Shown: in pieces, positions 10,714 through 53,317 of the stretch
Layout of the letters: every line of letters starts with the position of its first letter
Position numbering within the stretch: the stretch's first letter is position 1
Assembly (NCBI GenBank): GCA_035701885.1
Contig: DASSRG010000143.1
Location: forward strand, 1-53,909
From: Candidatus Limnocylindrales bacterium
Lineage (GTDB): Bacteria; Chloroflexota; Limnocylindria; Limnocylindrales; CSP1-4
Direction of reading: 5' to 3'
Length of the DNA: 53,909 nucleotides
Notes under the pieces: model-generated
The model's database searches: none
What the model saw: only the letters and a program-made list of their open reading frames with translations
What the model was told of the DNA's origin: nothing
Translations under genes and position numbers: made by a program

Positions 10714-11781
10714 TCAGGCGGTCTTCACCTGCTCCAGGACGCCGCTGTCCGCGCTGCGATAGGCGGCGTCGAGGATCTCGACCGTCCGCGCTCCGAGCTC
10801 GGCCGGCGAGTTGTTCGCGAACGGCCGGCCCATGCCGGCCTCCACGAGCGCGTCGATCGGGCCCTGGCAGTCGTACAGCCCGGCGTCCGCCTCGAGCGGC
10901 ACGCGGACATCGTCCTCCGGGCTGCGATACCGCCACAGCAGGTTCTCGCGCAGGTCGAGGTGGAACATCCCGGTCGAGCCGACGACGCGCACCTCGACCG
11001 CGTGCCGGTTGTTCGCCCCGCCGAGGTGGCTCGAGGCGCCGCTCATCGTCCCGATCGCGCCGTTCGTGTAGCGGAGCGCCACCGCGTCGTGGAGCTCGAC
11101 CTTCGCGCCGAGGGGCGCCGACATCAGCGCGAACACCTCCTTGCCGCGGAGCCCGGTGATCCACAGCGACACGCCGAGGAGGTGGGTGAGCTGCGCCTGG
11201 CCGTAGCCGCCGCCCGACGTCTCGGGCCGGGACCACGTGTCCGGCTGCGGGATGTACTCAGGCGCCGACTGCGGATAGGCGCCGGTCTCGGACAGGAGCT
11301 CGCGGGTCACGGAATCCATGTGCAGCGCGACGTGCTCGATCTCGCCGACGCCGCCCTCGTCCTGCATCATCCGATGGGCCTGGACCACCATCGGCCGGTA
11401 GTTCCAGCCGTAGCTCAGGATCAGTGCCTTGCCGGTTCGCTGCGCCGTGGCGTCGAGGTCCCAGGCATCGGCCGGGTCGATCGTGAACGGCTTCTCGCAC
11501 ATCACGTGCGCGCCGGCCTCGAGCGCGGCCTTCGTCTGGACGTGGTGGTATCCGGGCGGGCTCCCGACGACGACGATGTCGGGCTTCGCGTCGATGACGT
11601 CCTGCCAGTCGGTGGTCGCGTCCTTGAAGCCGAAGTTGTTCCTGATCTTCGTGAGCAGCTCCGGGTTGCGGCGGTTCACGATCGTGAACTCGACCTCGTC
11701 GGCGTGCCGCTGCAGGTTCGGCAGGTGCGAGGAGACCGTCCAGGATCCGGCCCCGATCACGCCGAGGCGGAGCTTCGCCAT
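10714..11781 (-). CDS. Gfo/Idh/MocA family oxidoreductase
   Basis: Rossmann N-terminus LRLGVIGAGSW and EKP motif (VMCEKPF). Block SGGGYGQAQLTH is shared with the paralogues at 34304..35383 and 42176..43273. Confidence 0.85.
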   Translation of the reverse strand: MAKLRLGVIGAGSWTVSSHLPNLQRHADEVEFTIVNRRNPELLTKIRNNFGFKDATTDWQDVIDAKPDIVVVGSPPGYHHVQTKAALEAGAHVMCEKPFTIDPADAWDLDATAQRTGKALILSYGWNYRPMVVQAHRMMQDEGGVGEIEHVALHMDSVTRELLSETGAYPQSAPEYIPQPDTWSRPETSGGGYGQAQLTHLLGVSLWITGLRGKEVFALMSAPLGAKVELHDAVALRYTNGAIGTMSGASSHLGGANNRHAVEVRVVGSTGMFHLDLRENLLWRYRSPEDDVRVPLEADAGLYDCQGPIDALVEAGMGRPFANNSPAELGARTVEILDAAYRSADSGVLEQVKTA

Positions 11782-11972: not shown

Positions 11973-13118
11973 GTGAGCAAGGTCGCGACCGTCGAAGCCA
12001 TCCCGGTGTCCTACCCGGAGCCGAACGACTTCAACGCCCTGCGGCACCTGTGCCTCGTGAAGATCACCACCGACGACGGCGTCGTGGGCTGGGGCGAGTC
12101 CATCACCCAGTTCCCGGAGGCCAACTTCGCGGTCAAGGCGATCATCGAGGGCATGTCGGAGCGGGTCGTCGGCAAGGACCCGCTGGACAACGTGGCGATC
12201 TGGCACTCGCTCCGCGACCAGGCGTGGTGGTACGGCTACGGCGGCGGGATCGCCTCGTACGCGGTCGCGGCGATCGACATCGCCCTGTGGGACATCAAGG
12301 GCAAGCTGCTCAACGTGCCCGTGCTCCAGCTGCTCGGCGGCGCGGTCCACGAGCGGCTCCCGGCCGTCGCGTCGTGCCACGCGCACTACGAGGACATCGA
12401 CCGGATGGTCGAGGAGGCCCAGGAGTGGGTCGCGCCCGGGCTCCACGGCGTGAAGGTGGGCTTCGGCAAGCGGGGCAACGCGCGGCTCGGCTACGAGCAC
12501 GATCGCGACGTCGAGTACATCCGCAAGATGCGGGCGGGCCTCGGCGACGACCAGATGATCATGATCGACTGCGGCTGGAACGTGAAGTGGGACGTCACGA
12601 CCGCGGTCCGTCGGGTCCAGGCGTTCGACGAGTACAACCTCCACTGGATCGAGGAGCCGCTGGGCGCCTGGGATCCGGAGGGATACGCGAACCTCCGCTC
12701 GAAGACGACCGCGCTCATCGCGTACGGCGAGAAGGAGTGGAACCTCGACGGCTTCGAGCGCGTGCTCGGCACGGGCACGGTCGATGTCGTGGGCATCGAC
12801 CCCGGGCGCGCCGAGGGCCTGACGGGCTTCAAGCGGGCGTCCGAGCGGATCGAGTTCTACCGCCGCCAGGCGAACGCCCATTGCTGGTCGTCGGCGATCG
12901 TGACCGCCGCGAGCCACGCGATGAGCTTCAGCTCGCCGGCGTTCAAGCTCATCGAGGTCAAGCCGCTCACCAACCCGATGCAGCACGAGCTCGTCACGGA
13001 GCCGATCGCGCACGAGGACGGCTGGTTCACCCCGCCGACGAAGCCCGGCCTGGGGATCGAGGTCATCGACGAGGTCGTCGACCGCTACCGCAGCGAGAAG
13101 GTCCTCGGCAGGGCCTGA
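11973..13118 (+). CDS. enolase superfamily (mandelate racemase/muconate lactonizing enzyme-like) sugar-acid dehydratase candidate
   Basis: GTG 11973 (GGAGG upstream) inside ORF 11880..13118. Motifs AAIDIALWDIKGK, IDCGW, WIEEPL, AYGEKEW and NAHCWSS fit the metal-ligand and His-Asp layout of the MR subgroup. Paralogue at 35380..36510. Confidence 0.8.
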   Translation: MSKVATVEAIPVSYPEPNDFNALRHLCLVKITTDDGVVGWGESITQFPEANFAVKAIIEGMSERVVGKDPLDNVAIWHSLRDQAWWYGYGGGIASYAVAAIDIALWDIKGKLLNVPVLQLLGGAVHERLPAVASCHAHYEDIDRMVEEAQEWVAPGLHGVKVGFGKRGNARLGYEHDRDVEYIRKMRAGLGDDQMIMIDCGWNVKWDVTTAVRRVQAFDEYNLHWIEEPLGAWDPEGYANLRSKTTALIAYGEKEWNLDGFERVLGTGTVDVVGIDPGRAEGLTGFKRASERIEFYRRQANAHCWSSAIVTAASHAMSFSSPAFKLIEVKPLTNPMQHELVTEPIAHEDGWFTPPTKPGLGIEVIDEVVDRYRSEKVLGRA

Positions 13119-13161
13119 CCAACTCCCGTCACGGACATACCGCACACGCAGGGAGGCAACG

Positions 13162-13929
13162 ATGAGCTGGAGCGTCGGCGCAGGCCTGGAGGGGAAGGGC
13201 GTCATCGTCACGGGGGCCGCCGGCGGCATCGGCCGCGCGGTCACCGAGGCGTTCGCCACGACGGGGGCGCGGGTGATGGCCGTGGACGTGGACCAGGCGA
13301 AGGTCGACGAGGTCGTCGCGGGACTGGAGGGAAGCGGCCACGTCGGTGTCGCGGCTGACCTCCGTGACATCGGCTCGCATCCGGCGCTCGTCGCGCGAGC
13401 CCGCGCGGAGCTGGGCAACCTGTACGTCCTCGCCAACCTCGCCGCGGTGCTGCGGCGAAAGGGCTCGCTCGACGAGGTGACCGAGGACGACTGGGACTTC
13501 CAGCACGACGTGAATCTCAAGGCCGCGTTCTTCCTCGCGAGGGCGGCCGGCGACGCGATGATCGAACAGGGCCAGGGCGGCCGGATCATCCTGTTCAGCT
13601 CGCAGGGGTGGTGGACCGGCGGGTTCGGCGGCTCGGTCGCCTATGCGGCCACGAAGGGCGGCGTGACCTCGATGTGCCGCGGCCTCGCCCGCACGTTCGG
13701 CCCCCACCAGATCACGGTGAACTGCGTGTCGCCGGGCCAGGTCAACACCCCGATGCTGCTCACGGGCCTATCCCCGGAGGTCTACGAGGGGATGAAGAAG
13801 CAGACGCCGCTCGGATACGTCGCGGAGCCCGCCGAGATGGCCGGGCCGGTCGTGTTCCTCGCGTCCGACCACGCGAAGTACATCACCGGGTCCACGATCA
13901 ACGCCTCCGGCGGCTTCCTGATGTACTGA
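13162..13929 (+). CDS. SDR family oxidoreductase
   Basis: VTGAAGGIGRA and YAATK. C-terminal ITGSTINASGG. Confidence 0.9.
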   Translation: MSWSVGAGLEGKGVIVTGAAGGIGRAVTEAFATTGARVMAVDVDQAKVDEVVAGLEGSGHVGVAADLRDIGSHPALVARARAELGNLYVLANLAAVLRRKGSLDEVTEDDWDFQHDVNLKAAFFLARAAGDAMIEQGQGGRIILFSSQGWWTGGFGGSVAYAATKGGVTSMCRGLARTFGPHQITVNCVSPGQVNTPMLLTGLSPEVYEGMKKQTPLGYVAEPAEMAGPVVFLASDHAKYITGSTINASGGFLMY

Positions 13930-13935
13930 GGCCGC

Positions 13936-14967
13936 GTGACCACGATGCGCGCCGCGGAGATCGCGGCGCCGGGCGCGCCGCTGCGGCTCGTCGACCGGCC
14001 CGTACCCGAGCCCGGGCCCGGAGAGGTCCGGGTTCGCGTCCAGGCATGCGGCGTGTGCGGCTCGGACGTGTTCCTGCAGAAGGGCGGGTTCGGTGACGCC
14101 GTGACGTGGCCGGTGATCCCCGGCCACGAGGCCGCCGGCGTGGTGGATGCGCTCGGCGACGGGGTGACGGCGGTCGCGGTCGGCGAGCAGGTCGCGCTGT
14201 ACTACATCACGGTGCCGGCCGGCGACCCGTGGGCGGCCCGCGGCCGGCCGAACATCAGCCCGCACGTGACCCGCATGGGCGTCGACGTGGACGGCGCGTT
14301 CGCCGAGTTCGTGATCCGGCCGGTCGAGGCACTGGTCCGCCCGCCCTCCCCCGTCCCCCCGGAGGTCCTGGCCGTCCTCACCGACGCGGTGGCGACGCCG
14401 CTCCACGGCCTCAAGCGCGTCGCGAGGCTGCAGCCCGGGGAGACGCTGGTGGTCCTCGGGGTCGGCGGGCTGGGCTCCAACGCCGTCCAGCTGGGCAAGG
14501 CGATGGGTGCGCGGGTCATCGCCGTGACACGGTCGGAGGCGAAGCTGGCCCTCGCGCGGAGGCTGGGCGCGGACGAGACGGTGGCGGCGGACGAGGGCGA
14601 CGTCGTGGCCACCGTGCGCGAGATCGCGGGCGGGTACGGCGCGGACGTGGTGATCCAGTGCGTGGGCTCGGCCGCGGTCGACGAGCAGGCGATCGCGATG
14701 GGCGGGCCGGGCGGCCGGGTCGTCCTGATCGGCAGCTCGCTCGACCAGTTCCGGGCTCGCGCGGTCGACATCTTCTGGCGTGAGCTGTCGGTGCTGGGTT
14801 CGCGCGGCTTCGTCCCGGACGACATCCGCGACGCGATCGGGCTCTATCTCGACGGGACGCTCCGGGTCGAACACCTTGTGGACAACGTCCGGCCGCTCGA
14901 CGAGGCGAACGACGCGCTCGAGGACCTCAAGGCCGGCCGGGGCTTCCGGACCGTGCTGACGACCTGA
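13936..14967 (+). CDS. zinc-dependent alcohol dehydrogenase (MDR) family protein
   Basis: CGVCGSD and PGHEAAG zinc-ligand motifs. GVGGLG nucleotide-binding motif. 343 aa. Confidence 0.85.
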   Translation: MTTMRAAEIAAPGAPLRLVDRPVPEPGPGEVRVRVQACGVCGSDVFLQKGGFGDAVTWPVIPGHEAAGVVDALGDGVTAVAVGEQVALYYITVPAGDPWAARGRPNISPHVTRMGVDVDGAFAEFVIRPVEALVRPPSPVPPEVLAVLTDAVATPLHGLKRVARLQPGETLVVLGVGGLGSNAVQLGKAMGARVIAVTRSEAKLALARRLGADETVAADEGDVVATVREIAGGYGADVVIQCVGSAAVDEQAIAMGGPGGRVVLIGSSLDQFRARAVDIFWRELSVLGSRGFVPDDIRDAIGLYLDGTLRVEHLVDNVRPLDEANDALEDLKAGRGFRTVLTT

Positions 14968-15985
14968 TCCCGTCTGCCCTGGGCGCGGTCGCCGAGGCCC
15001 GGACGACGAGCTCCGGCGCGTCCGGGACGACCTCCTGGGCGATCGGCTTGCCGCTGATCGCCTCGACCAGCATCGCGGTCGCGAGCTCGCCCATCCGGCT
15101 CATCGGCATCCGGACGGCGGTCAGCGGCGGGTCGAGGTGGTCGAGCAGCGGATGGTCGTCCATCGTGACGATCGACACGTCCGTCGGCACGCGGACGCCG
15201 GCGGATCGAGCCGCCGTGAGCAGGCCCAGCGCAGTCGGCAGGCTCACGGTGTAGACCGCGGTCGGTCGTTCGTCCCCGGGCAGCGCGAGCAGCTCTGCGC
15301 CGAGCGCGGCGGAGGTCCGTTCCGTGAAGTCGCCCGCGCGCACCCACGCATCGCGGACTGGCAGCCCTGCTTCGGCCATCGCATCCCGGTAGCCGGCCTC
15401 GCGCCGGCGGCCGACGTCGGTGTCGCGACGCCCCCCGAGGAACCCGACGCGCCGGTGTCCCAGCGCGACGAGGTGACGCACCGCGAGCCGGCTGCCTTCG
15501 GCGTCGTCCATCGTCACCGAGCCGGCGACGGTGCCCGTCTGGCTGTTGACCGCGACGAACGGGAGCGCCTCCGACGCGATCTGGTCGACGAGCTCGTCGT
15601 GGACACGGGCGAACGCGACGAGCATCCCGTCCACGCGGCGCTCGAGGACGAGCCGGCCGAGCTGCTCCGGATCGAGGGTGGGGCCGTGGGCATCCGCGAC
15701 GACGACGAGGTAGTCCCGCGCGGCCGCCGCACGCTCGACACCCCGCAGCATCTCGAGCCACATGACGTTCTGGGGGTCGGGAAGGAACACGGCGAGGGTG
15801 CCGCTGCGCCGCGTCCGCAGTCCTCGTGCGGCGCCGTTTGGCCGGTAGGACAGCGCCGATGCCGCGGCCTGGACGCGCGCCCGGGTCTCCGGTCGCACGA
15901 CGAGCGCCGGATCGGCGCGGAGCACGCGCGCGGCCGTCGCGACGCTGACTTCCGCTCGTGCCGCGACGTCCTTCAGCGTTGCCAT
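14927..15985 (-). CDS. LacI family transcriptional regulator
   Basis: ATG 15985 (MATLKDVAARAEVSVATAARVL HTH) inside ORF 14927..16114. The 3' end overlaps the convergent ADH gene by 41 nt. Confidence 0.85.
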   Translation of the reverse strand: MATLKDVAARAEVSVATAARVLRADPALVVRPETRARVQAAASALSYRPNGAARGLRTRRSGTLAVFLPDPQNVMWLEMLRGVERAAAARDYLVVVADAHGPTLDPEQLGRLVLERRVDGMLVAFARVHDELVDQIASEALPFVAVNSQTGTVAGSVTMDDAEGSRLAVRHLVALGHRRVGFLGGRRDTDVGRRREAGYRDAMAEAGLPVRDAWVRAGDFTERTSAALGAELLALPGDERPTAVYTVSLPTALGLLTAARSAGVRVPTDVSIVTMDDHPLLDHLDPPLTAVRMPMSRMGELATAMLVEAISGKPIAQEVVPDAPELVVRASATAPRADGIRSSARSGSPGRP

Positions 15986-48598: not shown

Positions 48599-48892
48599 TC
48601 AGCGGCCCCCCGGACGCTCCGGGTCGCGCGGGTGCTGCGCCAGCGCCTGGACCTCGATGTCCAGCCACCGGAACATCGGCAGCGAGGCGAGCGCGGCGTC
48701 GAGCGCCGTCGCGTCGGGCGCCTCCCAGATGCCGTAGTTCGCCCGTCGTCCCGGGATCCGCCACAGGCGGCGGAGGATGCCCGCCTCGGCCAGCTCGGCG
48801 GCCCGCACGGTCTCCGCGGCGCTGATCCGCGCGAACTCCGCCGGGTCACCGTCCGCCGGCCAGCGGATCTCGATATGGACGAGGAACTCCAC
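48599..48892 (-). CDS. muconolactone delta-isomerase-like protein
   Basis: GTG 48892 (GGAGG upstream) inside ORF 48599..48946, about 97 aa. RRLWRIPGRRANYGIWEAPD and LPMFRWLDIEVQAL match the CatC-type ferredoxin-like fold pattern (..WR..G...N..I.D.....L...L...P.....I.V.PL..HP). Confidence 0.6.
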   Translation of the reverse strand: MEFLVHIEIRWPADGDPAEFARISAAETVRAAELAEAGILRRLWRIPGRRANYGIWEAPDATALDAALASLPMFRWLDIEVQALAQHPRDPERPGGR

Positions 48893-49047: not shown

Positions 49048-49293
49048 ATGGCGCGGATCGCGATCGAGATGCCGAAGCTGGGCTACGACATGGAGTCGGG
49101 ACGGATCGGCGCCTGGGTCAAGCAGGTCGGGGACCGGGTCGAGCGGGGCGACGTCGTCGCCGAGATCGAGACCGAGAAGTCCACCGTGGACATGGAGTCG
49201 ACCGCGACCGGGACCCTCGTCGAGATCGTCGCGGAGGCGGGCGCGGAGCTGCCGGTCGGCGAGGTCATCGGCTACCTCGACGACGAGGCGTGA
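49048..49293 (+). CDS. stand-alone lipoyl-attachment domain protein (81 aa)
   Basis: ATG 49048 inside ORF 48961..49293. MPKLGYDMESGRIGAWVKQVGDRVERGDVVAEIETEKSTVDMES is an E2-type lipoyl domain with the lipoyl-Lys in ETEKS. There is no AMKM biotin motif. Confidence 0.75.
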   Translation: MARIAIEMPKLGYDMESGRIGAWVKQVGDRVERGDVVAEIETEKSTVDMESTATGTLVEIVAEAGAELPVGEVIGYLDDEA

Positions 49294-50000
49294 GCGCCGG
49301 AACGGACGGGCGTCGGCCGGTCGCGGCCACGCCGATGCGGGCGGCCATCGCCCGCCGGATGGTCCAGAGCAAGCAGCAGGTCCCCCACTTCTACGTCACG
49401 ACCGAGATCGAGGTCGACGCGCTCGCCGCCGCGGTCGACCGCCACAACGAGGGCCGCACGAAGGAGCAGCGAGCAACGCTGACGGCGTACCTCCTGCGCG
49501 CCGTCGCCACGACGCTCGTCCGCCACCCGGAGTTCAACGCCGTGTGGAACGGCGACACGCTCGAGCAGTGGGAGACGGTGAACCTCGGCGTCGCGATCGC
49601 CGTGGAGGACGGCCTGATCGCCCCCGCGCTCCTCGACTGCGCAAACCGCGACGTGGACGACCTCGCGATGGGCCTCGCCGATCTCACCGCGCGGACCCGG
49701 GCCGGCCGGCTCAAGGCGCCGGAGATGACAGACGCCACGTTCACGCTGTCGAACCTCGGCATGTTCGAGGTGACCCAATTCACCGCGATCGTGACGCCGC
49801 CGCAGGTCGCGATCCTGGCCACGGGACGAGGCTACGAGCGGCCCGTCGTCCGCGACGGACAGGTCGTCGTGCGGCGGGTGCTCCAGGCGACGATCTCCGC
49901 GGACCACCGGGCGGTGGACGGGGCAGGCGCGGCCCGGTTCCTGGGCACCCTCAAGGACCTGCTGGAGGCGCCGGCCGGCTGGGCGCCCGGCGCCGAGTAG
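49290..50000 (+). CDS. 2-oxoacid dehydrogenase E2-type acyltransferase, catalytic domain only (236 aa)
   Basis: GTG 49290 (GTGA overlap with the lipoyl-domain stop) inside ORF 48777..50000. The sequence begins at the catalytic-domain boundary (ATPMRAAIARRMVQSKQQVPHFY) and has the active-site motif ISADHRAVDGAGAARFL. Confidence 0.8.
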   Translation: MSAGTDGRRPVAATPMRAAIARRMVQSKQQVPHFYVTTEIEVDALAAAVDRHNEGRTKEQRATLTAYLLRAVATTLVRHPEFNAVWNGDTLEQWETVNLGVAIAVEDGLIAPALLDCANRDVDDLAMGLADLTARTRAGRLKAPEMTDATFTLSNLGMFEVTQFTAIVTPPQVAILATGRGYERPVVRDGQVVVRRVLQATISADHRAVDGAGAARFLGTLKDLLEAPAGWAPGAE

Positions 50001-50007
50001 CACCGCG

Positions 50008-51507
50008 ATGGGCTTCCTCGCCGGTGCGGCGCGCGTCGACATCACGCCGCCGCTCCCCGTCGACCTGCTGGGCTACGTCCGCCGCGCGCAGGCCGCGCGC
50101 GGCGTCTGGGACCCGCTGCTGGCGACCGCGGCTGTGCTGCGGGGCGAAGGCGGGGTCAACGTCGTCGTGATCGCCGCGGACGTCGTGGGGCTCACGACCG
50201 AGATGAGCGACCGGATCCGCGCGCGCGTCGCGTCGGCCGTCTCGTGTCGGCCCGAGGAGGTGCTGCTCAACTCCTCGCACAGCCACGCGGCGCCGTGGCC
50301 GGGCGCGCCGGTCAAGATGGGCGGCGAGTTCGACGGCTGGACCGAGACCGAGCTCCGGTGGTGGGAGTCGGTTCCGGACCTGTACGCCTCGGCTGCCGTC
50401 CAGGCAGCGGAACAGGCCGTCGAGGCACGGGTGTCAGGGGGCGTCGGCCGCGTGAAGGACGTGGCCGTCAACCGCCGCGAGCGGACGCCCGACGGGCGCA
50501 CGATCCTCGGCTGGAACCCGGACCTGTTCCTCGACGAGAGCGTGCCCACGCTGCGGATCGACGCGCTGGACGCGCCCGCGGACCGGCCTGAGGCGATCGC
50601 CACGATCGTCGGCTTCGGCTGCCACCCCGTGGTCGTCGGCCCGGAGGTTCCGCTCGTCGGGTCGGACTTCGTCGGCCCGCTGCGCGACCTGCTGGACGGC
50701 GCGCTCCGGCCCGACGGCGTCACCATCTTCCTCCAGGGCGCGGCCGGCAACGTCCTGCCGCTCGAGGCGTTCCGCGACGAGCCCGGGTCGGCGCAGGGCA
50801 TCGGGGAGCGGCTCGCCCTCGAGGCCGCGCACGCCGTCGCCGACCGCGATCCGCGCGAGATCGAGGTGCGCCACGAGGCATACGGCTCGGTGACGCCGAT
50901 CTCGCTCTACCGCCGGCAGCTCGCGACGACCCAGCCGGTCCCCGTCCTCCGCACGACCCGGCGGATCGTGTCGCTGCCGATGCTGGAGCCGCCGTCCGTC
51001 GAGGACCTCGAGCGCGAGCTCGCCGAGCGGCGCGAGGACCTGCGCCGGCGCGCCGAGGCCGGCGAGGGCCGGGCGACGATGAACCCCGTCCGCTACCACA
51101 TCGACTGGCTCGCCCAGCAGCTGGCGGCGGCCCGATCCGGCCCGCTGCCGGCAACCGTCGATGGCGAGGTCTGGGCCGCCCGGCTCGGCGACACCGCGAT
51201 CGTCGGCGCACCCGGTGAGATCTTCGGCGAGATCGGCGCGGCGGTGCGAGCGGCGTCGCCGGCGCCGGTGACCGTCTTCGCCGGCTACTCGAACGGGAGC
51301 CTCGGCTACGTCGCGACGCCCGAGGAGTACCCGTTCGGCGGGTACGAGCCGGCCGTGTCGCACCGCGGGTACGGCCACCCGGCGCCGTTCTCGCCGGACG
51401 TCGCGGGCATCCTCGAGCGGGTGTCGCTGGAGCTGCTCGGCGAGCTGTTTCCCGAGGGGCCTGTCGCGGACCGCGTGCCCGCCGCGCGCCCGCCGGTGCG
51501 AGGATGA
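50008..51507 (+). CDS. neutral/alkaline ceramidase-like hydrolase family protein (tentative)
   Basis: 499 aa. The N-terminus AARVDITPPLPVDLLGY ... VVVIAADVVG ... NSSHSHAAP resembles bacterial neutral-ceramidase-N-domain proteins as I recall them. Not verified. Confidence 0.4.
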   Translation: MGFLAGAARVDITPPLPVDLLGYVRRAQAARGVWDPLLATAAVLRGEGGVNVVVIAADVVGLTTEMSDRIRARVASAVSCRPEEVLLNSSHSHAAPWPGAPVKMGGEFDGWTETELRWWESVPDLYASAAVQAAEQAVEARVSGGVGRVKDVAVNRRERTPDGRTILGWNPDLFLDESVPTLRIDALDAPADRPEAIATIVGFGCHPVVVGPEVPLVGSDFVGPLRDLLDGALRPDGVTIFLQGAAGNVLPLEAFRDEPGSAQGIGERLALEAAHAVADRDPREIEVRHEAYGSVTPISLYRRQLATTQPVPVLRTTRRIVSLPMLEPPSVEDLERELAERREDLRRRAEAGEGRATMNPVRYHIDWLAQQLAAARSGPLPATVDGEVWAARLGDTAIVGAPGEIFGEIGAAVRAASPAPVTVFAGYSNGSLGYVATPEEYPFGGYEPAVSHRGYGHPAPFSPDVAGILERVSLELLGELFPEGPVADRVPAARPPVRG

Positions 51508-52787
51508 GCACCGGGCTGGACGCCGCCGTCGCGGCCTGGGACGCCCGCCGGTCGGACATCCTCCCCGTCCTCGAGGCGCGGCGCGCGGACCTGCCGTTGC
51601 GGTACTGGCGTCAGGCCGCGCACTACACGACGCCGGCGGCCGACGCGACGATGGCGCGCAAGGCCGTCGAGGGCGGGACCGCGCCGGTCGGCCGAATCCT
51701 CGACAAGTTCGGCGTGACGCCGGGCGTGCTCGCCGAACGGCTCGGGACGGAGGTGGGCGCCGTGGAGGCCCTGCTCGCCCGCCCCGCCCGGGCGCCGCTC
51801 GTGATGCTCGACGGGGAGGACGCGCAGGCACTCCGCGACGACGTGACGGAGGCGGGACTGCGCGAAGCCGCCGCGACGCTGGTGGAGGCCGACTGGGCCG
51901 GCGACGGCGCACCGAGCCTGCGCACGTTCCGCCCACCGGGGATCGCGCTCGGGTCCACGGCTCGCGACCTCGCAGCCGTCCTCGGCGCGCTCGCCGAACG
52001 CGCCGCCGCAGACCGCCTGGACGCGGTGATCTATCCCAAGGTGGAGCATCCCGAGGAGATCGAGGCGCTGTACTCGTTCCTCGACGACGCCGAAGCGGCG
52101 CTCGGGCTCGCAGCCCGTTCGATCCGCGTCGGCTTCCTCGTCGAGAGTGGCTGGGCGGCCGCGCGCCTGCCCGAGATCGCGCTCGCCGCGATGCCGCGCC
52201 TGTGCTCGATCATCTACGGCCTCGCGGACTACTCCGCGGACCTCGGGCTGCCGCAGATCGCGGACGACGCGCCGCTGGCGCAGTGGGTCCGCGGAGAGAT
52301 CGTCAACGTCGCGGGCGCCGCGGGCGTCCCGGCCATCGACGGGATGACGCTCGCATACCCCGTCGCCGACTCCTCGCTGGACGCGGCGGCAAACCGGGAG
52401 CGCTTCCTCGACCGGATGGCGCTGGTCCACGCTGACGCCGTGCGCGCCCGCGACATGGGCATGCTCGGCAAGTGGGTGGGCCACCCGGCCCAGCTGTTCG
52501 CGGTCCTGCTGGCGTTCGAGGCGGGCCTGGACCCCGCCGCGCTCGACGAGGAGGCGGCGAAGCTCGAGGCCTACCGGGCGTCGGTCGAGGACGAGGCGCG
52601 CGGGGCCACGATCATCGGCGGCGTGATGAGCGACCGGGCGACCGACCGGCACGCGCGTGTCCTGCTCCGGCGGGCGGTCGCGCTCGGGCGGTTCGAGCCC
52701 CGACGCGCGCACGCGCTGCGCGTGCTCGAGGACGCGGAGCTGGCGGAGGCCGAGGCGATCTGGGCGGTGACGGGAGGACGGGCATGA
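51504..52787 (+). CDS. HpcH/HpaI aldolase / citrate lyase beta (CitE)-like C-C lyase, long form
   Basis: ATGA overlap with the upstream stop. Motifs LVMLDGEDAQ, IYPKVEHPEE, FLVESGWA and YGLADYSADLG follow the CitE/malyl-CoA-lyase order. It carries a ~95-aa N-terminal extension and totals 427 aa. Confidence 0.5.
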   Translation: MSTGLDAAVAAWDARRSDILPVLEARRADLPLRYWRQAAHYTTPAADATMARKAVEGGTAPVGRILDKFGVTPGVLAERLGTEVGAVEALLARPARAPLVMLDGEDAQALRDDVTEAGLREAAATLVEADWAGDGAPSLRTFRPPGIALGSTARDLAAVLGALAERAAADRLDAVIYPKVEHPEEIEALYSFLDDAEAALGLAARSIRVGFLVESGWAAARLPEIALAAMPRLCSIIYGLADYSADLGLPQIADDAPLAQWVRGEIVNVAGAAGVPAIDGMTLAYPVADSSLDAAANRERFLDRMALVHADAVRARDMGMLGKWVGHPAQLFAVLLAFEAGLDPAALDEEAAKLEAYRASVEDEARGATIIGGVMSDRATDRHARVLLRRAVALGRFEPRRAHALRVLEDAELAEAEAIWAVTGGRA

Positions 52788-53317
52788 GCACCCACCGGAG
52801 CGACGGCGCGAACAAGGGCGAGGCCACCGAGCGACGCGTGGTCGAGGGTTGGGACGGGCGCTACTTCGACGACTTCCGGGTCGGCGACGTCTACCGCCAT
52901 CCGAACGGCCGCACCGTGACCGAGACCGACAACACGTGGTTCAGCCTGTTGACCAACAACCCGCATCCGGTCCACTCGAACGCCGACTACGCGTCGCGCA
53001 CGGAGTTCGGACGGCCGCTCGTGGTGTCCACGCTCACCCTTGCGATCGTCACCGGCCTGTCGGTCGACGACGTGTCGCGGAACGCGGTGGCCAACCTCGG
53101 CTGGGACGAGGTGCGGCTGCCCGCGCCGGTGTTCGCGGGCGACACGCTGTACGCGGAGTCGGAGGTCCTCGAGACGCGGCCCTCGCGGAGCAGGCCCGGC
53201 CAGGGCCTCGTGCGCGTCCGGACCCGTGGCTACAACCAGCGGGGCGAAACGGTCATCACGTACGAGCGGACGATCCTCGTCTACACGCGGGCGGGCCGCC
53301 CGGGCGCGGACGACTGA
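52784..53317 (+). CDS. MaoC-like (R)-specific enoyl-CoA hydratase (hot-dog fold)
   Basis: ATG 52784 (ATGA overlap) inside ORF 52472..53317. Motifs RYFDDFRVGDVY, RTVTETDNTWFSLLTNNPHPVHSN and PVFAGDTLYAESEV. Confidence 0.75.
   Translation: MSTHRSDGANKGEATERRVVEGWDGRYFDDFRVGDVYRHPNGRTVTETDNTWFSLLTNNPHPVHSNADYASRTEFGRPLVVSTLTLAIVTGLSVDDVSRNAVANLGWDEVRLPAPVFAGDTLYAESEVLETRPSRSRPGQGLVRVRTRGYNQRGETVITYERTILVYTRAGRPGADD

Follow-up and report, generated by a model that had tools for sequence, protein, structure and literature searches.

A free lipoyl carrier and a stand-alone acyltransferase core as the probable E2 of an untethered 2-oxoacid dehydrogenase in Limnocylindria

In a Candidatus Limnocylindrales bacterium (Chloroflexota), two overlapping genes encode separately the lipoyl domain and the catalytic domain of an E2 acyltransferase: a free-standing lipoyl carrier of 81 amino acids (49048..49293, + strand) and a stand-alone catalytic core of 236 amino acids (49290..50000, + strand). 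Both lie towards the end of contig DASSRG010000143.1 (C143), of which the whole stretch of 53,909 nucleotides analyzed here is called the window. We propose that this pair represents the E2 function of an E1-dependent 2-oxoacid dehydrogenase of the pyruvate dehydrogenase (PDH) type that has been dismantled into untethered parts, and assign a probability of about 0.62 to this reading. The pair belongs to a conserved family with a single origin, members of which adjoin genes for E1 alpha and beta (E1a and E1b, together E1ab), and it co-occurs with one otherwise rare type of E1ab.

Anatomy and origin of the split pair

The carrier, which reads MARIAIEMPKLGYDME...EIETEKSTVDME...LDDEA, has a GGAGG motif 5 nt upstream of its ATG and matches PF00364 (Biotin_lipoyl) at 3.9e-17 (62 bits, cut-off 22). 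In a GTGA junction, its stop codon (TGA, 49291-49293) and the start codon of the core (GTG, 49290-49292) overlap. The presumed lipoyl-lysine is found in the motif EIETEKS, and relatives keep ETEKS, ETDKS or ETEKA. Among the NCBIfam models, the lipoyl domains of E2p, E2o and AcoC score 45-82 bits versus 18-25 bits for the biotin carriers (BCCP), the top match being the lipoyl domain of AcoC (NF011457, 82.5 bits). The protein is not a member of the GCV_H family (PF01597, 20.1 bits, under the cut-off of 22.2). By these profiles the carrier is an E2-type lipoyl domain, of the lipoyl and not the biotinyl type, and it is predicted to be lipoylated.

The core matches PF00198 at 1.2e-72 and covers profile positions 7-228 of 232, which is the catalytic domain alone, without lipoyl domain or linker. 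The best NCBIfam model is TIGR01349 (PDHac_trf_mito), of which only the catalytic part is matched (195 bits, cut-off 445), and the nearest solved structure is the inner core of human E2p (3b8k, 8e-37, 130 bits) with homology over the full length. In the alignment with human E2p both the catalytic serine (FTLSNLG) and the histidine and aspartate (DHRAVDG) are present, and the serine and the DHRxxDG motif are invariant across 22 members of the split clade. Judged by these residues, the core looks catalytically competent. A preliminary description of this DNA, made from the letters only, had already reported separate overlapping genes of 81 and 236 codons with a GTGA junction, a core starting at the boundary of the catalytic domain, a retained DHRxxDG active site and the lack of a subunit-binding domain (PSBD). 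The coordinates and content of the two genes, the profile boundaries and the alignment bear out each of these points, and the PSBD profile PF02817 finds no match in carrier or core.

Of the features of a canonical E2, the core retains the PF00198 domain with its active site but lacks an in-cis lipoyl domain, the PSBD and the terminal knob. A six-frame search for PF02817 across the whole assembly returns only the canonical E2 of 493 amino acids on contig C96. A weak match of 16.5 bits (E 0.05) in an unrelated open reading frame (ORF) on C183 was considered as a PSBD hidden elsewhere and dropped. The domain matches of the pair itself, at E 1e-17 and 1e-72 in conserved neighboring genes, are far beyond chance.

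The split is not restricted to this contig. A protein-cluster search covering 5.8 billion proteins yields more than 120 clusters of 221-277 amino acids with PF00198 only (66-100% identity), and the named ones originate from Limnocylindria (Chloroflexota). The split architecture, which the preliminary description had suggested looking for in relatives, is kept as two ORFs in ten related loci from independent assemblies (66-94% identity), two of them on contigs larger than 2 Mb: the lipoyl ORF always comprises 81 amino acids and ends with its own stop codon, followed by a separate core. The two ORFs overlap, meet without a gap or stand 6 nt or about 25 nt apart, their relative frames being 0, +1 and +2, and there is no coding potential for a linker or PSBD between both domains. 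Since the genome at hand is a metagenome-assembled genome (MAG) of 351 contigs (90% complete), it had to be considered whether the split is a frameshift introduced by sequencing or assembly, or whether an ordinary E2 is decaying here into a pseudogene. Junctions of all three frame types recur in assemblies made independently, the two large contigs among them, which a sequencing frameshift cannot produce. Invariant catalytic residues, the monophyly of the family and the missing linker and PSBD coding also speak against this explanation. Consequently, we regard this explanation as effectively refuted.

A maximum-likelihood tree was built from 188 catalytic domains, which include 17 split cores derived from loci and seven short representatives. 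These 24 stand-alone cores group together in a single clade (SH-aLRT 95) that contains no full-length E2. This monophyly indicates that the split arose once. A stand-alone core is present in 14 of the 151 sampled genomes of the class. One window-type locus (L009, DATIUS010000188.1) stems from a MAG that bears the name Candidatus Sulfomarinibacteraceae (Acidobacteriota). As it shows 79% identity and full synteny with the Limnocylindria loci, this MAG was likely binned or labelled incorrectly in the public record.

The C-terminus of the core deserves separate attention. Whereas canonical relatives end in a hydrophobic P-x-x-M/L-L-L segment in the alignment, the C-termini of the split clade are variable and mostly polar (AGWAPGAE, GDWASVAS, DRPG), and the core of the window ends in AGWAPGAE. 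In E2 proteins a C-terminal 3-10 segment joins trimers into cubes or icosahedra of 24 or 60 subunits, and a re-oriented C-terminal segment makes the actinobacterial E2p trimeric (PMC8740704). The replacement of the hydrophobic knob by polar tails suggests that the core is probably a trimer only, having lost the contact between trimers. With neither PSBD nor knob, the components probably do not form a 24- or 60-mer with docked E1 and E3.

The E1 partner

Pfam scans across the 54-kb window, covering about 40 further ORFs, detect neither E1 nor E3, whether in the 49 kb that precede the pair or in the 3.9 kb that follow it, in agreement with the preliminary description. The latter had suggested that the pair is used outside a classical dehydrogenase complex, for example to move acyl groups between CoA and a dihydrolipoyl carrier. 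In such a scheme the core would act independently of any E1 and could serve the ceramidase-like, lyase and hydratase enzymes encoded downstream. In addition to the missing E1 and E3, this idea draws on the constant co-transcription of the core with CoA-ester enzymes in the sub-lineage of the window and on the ceramidase-fold hydrolase gene directly 3' of the core. However, this idea is not supported by the relatives, in which the same clade adjoins E1ab in at least seven independent loci and co-occurs in eight out of eight species with one otherwise rare E1ab type, and by the synteny of an assembly gap close to the window. Furthermore, the ceramidase-like gene is missing in G037, L125 and L126, which all keep the pair, and in the absence of an E1 the operon would offer no productive source of, or use for, a lipoyl group in its reduced or acylated form. 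An E1-free function is therefore very improbable in our view.

Members of the split clade stand directly beside E1 alpha/beta genes in L114, L115, L120, L121, L124, L125 and L126. The gene order varies: E1a-E1b-lipoyl-core in L115, E1a-E1b..core in L120 and lipoyl-core-E1a-E1b in L124, while in L125 an operon of a muconolactone isomerase (MIase)-like gene, E1a and E1b is divergent from lipoyl-core, the MIase-like gene being the first of its operon. In the metagenomic locus L126, a single operon unites an HpcH lyase, a family-III CoA-transferase, a MaoC hydratase, lipoyl, core, E1a and E1b, the same seven functions that are spread over two operons in genome G001. Genome G037 carries E1a-E1b-DAPDH-like, a VOC gene and lipoyl-core-lyase-hydratase, separated by 2.5 kb. 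In L114, which belongs to the same genus as the window, an E1 alpha-beta fusion ORF of 738 amino acids is followed by lipoyl and core (L114:7299-9515). The same locus contains a second E1a-E1b-lipoyl cluster with a core shortened to 146 amino acids (13085-15863) and a further core fragment at about 11458-11595, so that this second copy looks rearranged. E3 is never adjacent to the split pair in the related loci examined.

The relatives closest to the window do not carry E1ab beside the pair, but share a particular type of it, here referred to as L107-type, with the operon order E1a-E1b-enolase-superfamily-CoA-transferase III. Its E1a matches TIGR03182 (PDH E1-alpha 'y') with 340-355 bits, below the cut-off of 394. 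It is present in all eight GTDB species representatives with a window-type operon at 80-100% identity. In G001-G004 it is located on the same contig as the split pair at a distance of 35-56 kb, in G032 it lies 6 kb from MIase-lipoyl-core within one sugar-acid cluster, and the E1ab of G037, 2.5 kb from lipoyl-core-lyase-hydratase, is of this type as well. Among the 151 sampled genomes of the class L107-type E1ab occurs in only five, three of which have an adjoining pair or a remnant of it and a fourth a stand-alone lipoyl gene divergent from E1a. By profile matches, the L107-type E1a ('y' type) and the core (similar to the 'mito' E2p of TIGR01349) are a matched PDH-type pair. The genomes G001-G008 each contain exactly two E2 cores, a canonical and a split one, but two to four E1ab. 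The orphan E1ab thus finds its complement in the split E2, which is likewise an orphan.

The genome of the window itself also has two E2 cores. The canonical one is encoded on C96 together with E3, E1a and E1b, this E3 being the only one. An orphan PDH-type E1ab (C103:15297-19491) is situated between M24/creatinase-like and 3-hydroxyisobutyrate-dehydrogenase-like genes with no E2 beside it. It was rejected as partner, as about 20 genomes of the class have orthologues (71-82% identity) and none of these has a stand-alone core, and this type is present in only three of the eight species with a window-type operon. An orphan homodimeric AceE-type E1p (C116:216-2861, - strand; TIGR00759, 1355 bits) occupies a contig of 4.3 kb with no E2 nearby.

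The L107-type E1ab is absent from the assembled contigs, but a gap is found where it would be expected. When placed on the corresponding region of G001, the contigs follow one another as C158, C78 and C143, and the block of E1a, E1b, enolase and CoA-transferase falls in the gap between C158 and C78. The latter contig (4276 bp) starts at the expected E1a start codon and abuts the start of the window, from which it is about 170 bp apart on the scale of G001. Based on this synteny, the E1ab very probably lies in the gap about 4.4 kb to the left of the window and some 53 kb from the pair. If this E1ab is counted, the genome would possess four E1 systems but two E2 cores and one E3. The preliminary description had named E1/E3 genes immediately outside the window, combined with ordinary complexes in orthologues, as an outcome that would speak against it. 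The first half holds to the extent that an E1 is very probably encoded just outside, while the orthologues are anything but ordinary, all being split and devoid of a PSBD.

A different partner comes into view in six genome-reduced relatives from a sister family (G019, G052, G064, G073, G112 and G151; 1.0-1.4 Mb, 89-93% complete). Here, the lipoyl-core pair (61% identity) is isolated beside a pdxH-like gene (e.g., L118:9503-10475). The split core is the sole PF00198 protein, an AceE-type E1p is present and there is no PF00676 E1a (E1_dh) in any of the six. With a single E2 and AceE as the only E1, the pair would by elimination serve AceE in these genomes. The untethered architecture thus may be a cell's only E2, and the carrier does not seem to be restricted to one class of E1. 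Extrapolating to the window, the split pair could be the PDH E2p for the orphan AceE-type E1p on C116, which lacks an adjoining E2, and be placed in its operon because the lyase yields pyruvate, with the co-occurrence of E1ab being secondary. The E2p-like nature of the core is in line with this. Yet, a stand-alone core is limited to the 14 of 151 class genomes mentioned above, and elsewhere a canonical, PSBD-bearing E2 presumably serves the other E1s. Moreover, AceE never adjoins the pair in the loci seen, and close neighborhood and the eight-out-of-eight co-occurrence favor an alpha/beta E1. We judge AceE as the primary partner to be improbable, but the two readings are not exclusive, as a free carrier could serve two E1s.

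For the E1ab-dependent function that we propose, the following sequence of events can be envisaged. The 81-residue protein would be lipoylated and act as a diffusible carrier. The heterotetrameric L107-type E1 alpha/beta, probably encoded in another part of the same catabolic island, would reductively acylate it; isolated lipoyl domains are good E1 substrates in the complexes of E. coli and Bacillus. Subsequently, the 236-residue core, with its catalytic residues intact, would pass the acyl group from the carrier to CoA, and the sole E3, encoded on C96, would re-oxidize the carrier and hence be shared. Without PSBD and knob, the components would meet by diffusion, as in the case of the H-protein.

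Operon context and a candidate pathway

Downstream of the core, the genes are tightly packed: a gap of 7 nt is followed by the ceramidase-fold gene, an ATGA overlap, the lyase gene, a gap of 2 nt and the hydratase gene. The first gene encodes a cytoplasmic hydrolase of 499 amino acids with a neutral-ceramidase fold (50008..51507, + strand). PF04734 (3.3e-13) matches only the N-terminal 158 residues, and NF041649 scores 18.6 versus a cut-off of 1200. The AlphaFold model (pLDDT 81, pTM 0.87) nevertheless retrieves the ceramidase of P. aeruginosa in Foldseek (2zxc, E 5e-22, TMq 0.62). The protein is about 150 amino acids shorter than ceramidases, lacks the C-terminal Ig-like domain and has no evident signal peptide; the metal-site residues H91, H93, H206, E404 and tyrosines are invariant among 30 homologues. 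It has more than 900 homologues, and the 120 of these that were listed are at least 65% identical. The gene is confined to the sub-lineage of the window; G037, L125 and L126 have no such gene between core and lyase. A role as lipoamidase or thioesterase was considered, but there is no evidence for it, and its absence from members that keep the pair places the protein outside the core mechanism.

The second gene (51504..52787, + strand) encodes a CoA-ester lyase of the DUF6986 / HpcH-HpaI type of 427 amino acids (PF03328 4e-16, PF22484 1.9e-15, PF01274 6.9e-9), whose closest solved structure is a malyl-CoA lyase (4l9y, 3.6e-10). A literature search on DUF6986 found nothing relevant. The third gene (52790..53317, + strand) specifies a MaoC-type (R)-specific enoyl-CoA hydratase of 175 amino acids (PF19315 2.5e-23, PF01575 1.5e-20) that resembles RipB/Ich. 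It scores 199.9 bits against the RipB_Ich model NF038241 (cut-off 340), and the lyase 56.2 bits against the RipC/Ccl model NF038242 (cut-off 375). In L005 (12171-13964), on a contig of 2.57 Mb, lyase and hydratase are fused to a single protein of 597 amino acids, which argues for consecutive catalytic steps.

Hydratase, lyase and the family-III CoA-transferase of the partner operon would follow the logic of the Ict-Ich-Ccl trio, in which a dicarboxylate is converted via an enoyl-CoA and a hydroxyacyl-CoA to acetyl-CoA and a 2-oxoacid. The simplest role for the E1/E2 module would then be to oxidize the 2-oxoacid that the lyase sets free, in the simplest case pyruvate, to the acyl-CoA.

On the other side of the pair, a muconolactone-isomerase-like protein of about 97 amino acids is encoded from a GTG at 48892 (48599..48892, - strand; PF02426 MIase 2e-28), with an ORF that is open to 48946. 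This gene is divergent from the lipoyl gene and occupies the same divergent place in all window-type loci and in G032. As it widely accompanies the E1/E2 module, its product may prepare the substrate, which is speculation. Together with the two-SBP sugar ABC transporter that flanks the operon, the MIase-like gene travels with the operon in relatives. The operon is accordingly bordered by conserved neighbors and not by unrelated genes. In the metagenomic relative L125 (3843-5528), the split pair is followed by genes of the acetoacetate-decarboxylase and fumarylacetoacetate-hydrolase families and not by lyase and hydratase, suggesting that the module is plugged into several catabolic routes.

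According to the Pfam scans, the remainder of the window is a catabolic island for sugars and sugar acids. It comprises three LacI regulators, several sugar ABC transporters, three Gfo/Idh/MocA dehydrogenases, two enolase-superfamily dehydratases, short-chain dehydrogenases/reductases (SDRs), an Amidohydro_2 lactonase and a rhamnose-mutarotase domain. This setting leads to a different view of the substrate, in which E1ab and the split E2 act on a sugar-derived 2-keto-3-deoxy acid or an acetoin-like alpha-hydroxyketone and deliver a 3-hydroxyacyl-CoA to the MaoC enzyme and the lyase. Besides the island with its transporters, Gfo dehydrogenases, lactonases and dehydratases, the enolase-superfamily genes of the E1 operon point in this direction, as they resemble talarate/galactarate or arabinonate dehydratases (134-151 bits). 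So do the score of E1a, just under the PDH cut-off, and the AcoC lipoyl domain as top match of the carrier. On the other hand, the family-III CoA-transferase that always accompanies the module would be unneeded, L126 combines a full Ict/Ich/Ccl-like trio with E1/E2 and has no sugar genes, and the literature searched offers no precedent for a 2-keto-3-deoxy-acid dehydrogenase complex. We consider such a substrate unlikely.

Several observations weigh against an E1ab-dependent PDH-type function of the pair and the pathway outlined for it. Genes that are 35-56 kb apart are not linked as in an operon, and their proximity could merely be part of the overall synteny that close relatives share. The L107-type E1ab is missing from a MAG that is 90% complete, and C158 terminates in an EamA-type transporter gene and a small ORF, neither of which G001 has at this position, so the content of the gap is not certain. 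The six reduced genomes have no E1 other than an AceE-type one, hence the pair is not tied to one class of E1. As to the pathway, the model assigns no part to the ceramidase-fold gene that separates core and lyase, lyase and hydratase stay under the equivalog cut-offs of RipC and RipB, and the surrounding island concerns sugars and not itaconate.

Comparison with known systems and implications

Substrate channelling by lipoyl arms is classically exemplified by the 2-oxoacid dehydrogenase complexes, whose arms are tethered to a scaffold that docks E1 and E3. Compared to the canonical E2p of PDH complexes with an alpha2beta2 E1 (mitochondrial/alphaproteobacterial; TIGR01349, 3b8k), the catalytic domain and active site of the core are alike, the lipoyl motif EIETxK of mitochondrial E2p resembles that of the carrier and the proposed partner E1a is of the matching 'y' type. 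The differences lie in the architecture: here, the lipoyl domain is separate, linker, PSBD and knob are missing, and E1 and E3 are not encoded alongside.

The glycine cleavage H-protein is a small free lipoyl protein that shuttles between unassembled enzymes and is re-oxidized by E3 (L-protein). It is the nearest functional analogue of the carrier: the proposed working principle is common to both, whereas the chemistry differs, with an acyl transfer to CoA here and an aminomethyl transfer there. The acetoin system AcoA/AcoB/AcoC has an alpha/beta E1 of a similar type, and the lipoyl domain of AcoC is the top match of the carrier. AcoC is a single chain with a lipoyl domain and a different C-terminal catalytic domain, while the acyltransferase described here is an E2 core of the PF00198 family that forms a polypeptide by itself. 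Similar to the itaconate trio Ict/Ich/Ccl (RipA/RipB/RipC), a MaoC hydratase stands beside an HpcH-type lyase, and relatives encode a family-III CoA-transferase in the partner E1 operon or, in L126, in the same operon. Unlike in the Rip trio, the scores are under the cut-offs, the lyase has the DUF6986 form of 427 amino acids and the operon of the window has no CoA-transferase. In the literature searched, no Rip/Ict cluster with a dedicated E1/E2 has been described.

The nearest natural precedent is the OdhA/AceF system of Actinobacteria. There, the lipoyl-less E2 domain of corynebacterial and mycobacterial OdhA is fused to E1o and uses in trans the lipoyl domains tethered to the PSBD-bearing E2p AceF, and this E2p has an altered C-terminus so that only trimers form (Bruch et al., 2021, as summarized in PMC8740704). 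By contrast, the core of the Limnocylindria pair is free, the lipoyl domain is a free protein of 81 amino acids and there is no PSBD in the system. No description of a naturally split, PSBD-less E2 was found in the literature searched.

In the monophyletic and naturally occurring family described here, the arm is a small protein of its own and both docking domain and knob are gone, yet the catalytic residues are still clearly constrained. It therefore provides a ready-made system to study what tethering and assembly contribute to rate, specificity and the protection of intermediates. Simultaneously, it shows the evolutionary dismantling of such complexes and complements the actinobacterial case of OdhA and the trimeric E2p. 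There is also a practical side: annotation pipelines name the core generically a 'dihydrolipoamide acetyltransferase family protein' and pass over the carrier, and consequently metabolic reconstructions of Limnocylindria may mis-score PDH-type functions. In addition, the module marks an uncharacterized CoA-ester pathway within a sugar-acid island, with a DUF6986 lyase, a MaoC hydratase, a family-III CoA-transferase, a ceramidase-fold hydrolase and an MIase-like protein as its further elements.

A more far-reaching possibility, which we put forward tentatively and at somewhat less than even odds, is that a whole bacterial clade runs PDH-type oxidative decarboxylation without a megacomplex, with a free carrier diffusing among an E1 that is not docked, a core limited to trimers and an E3 in shared use, and that the reduced genomes use this arrangement with AceE for central pyruvate oxidation. 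If true, tethered swinging arms and a PSBD scaffold would be dispensable for a housekeeping 2-oxoacid dehydrogenase.

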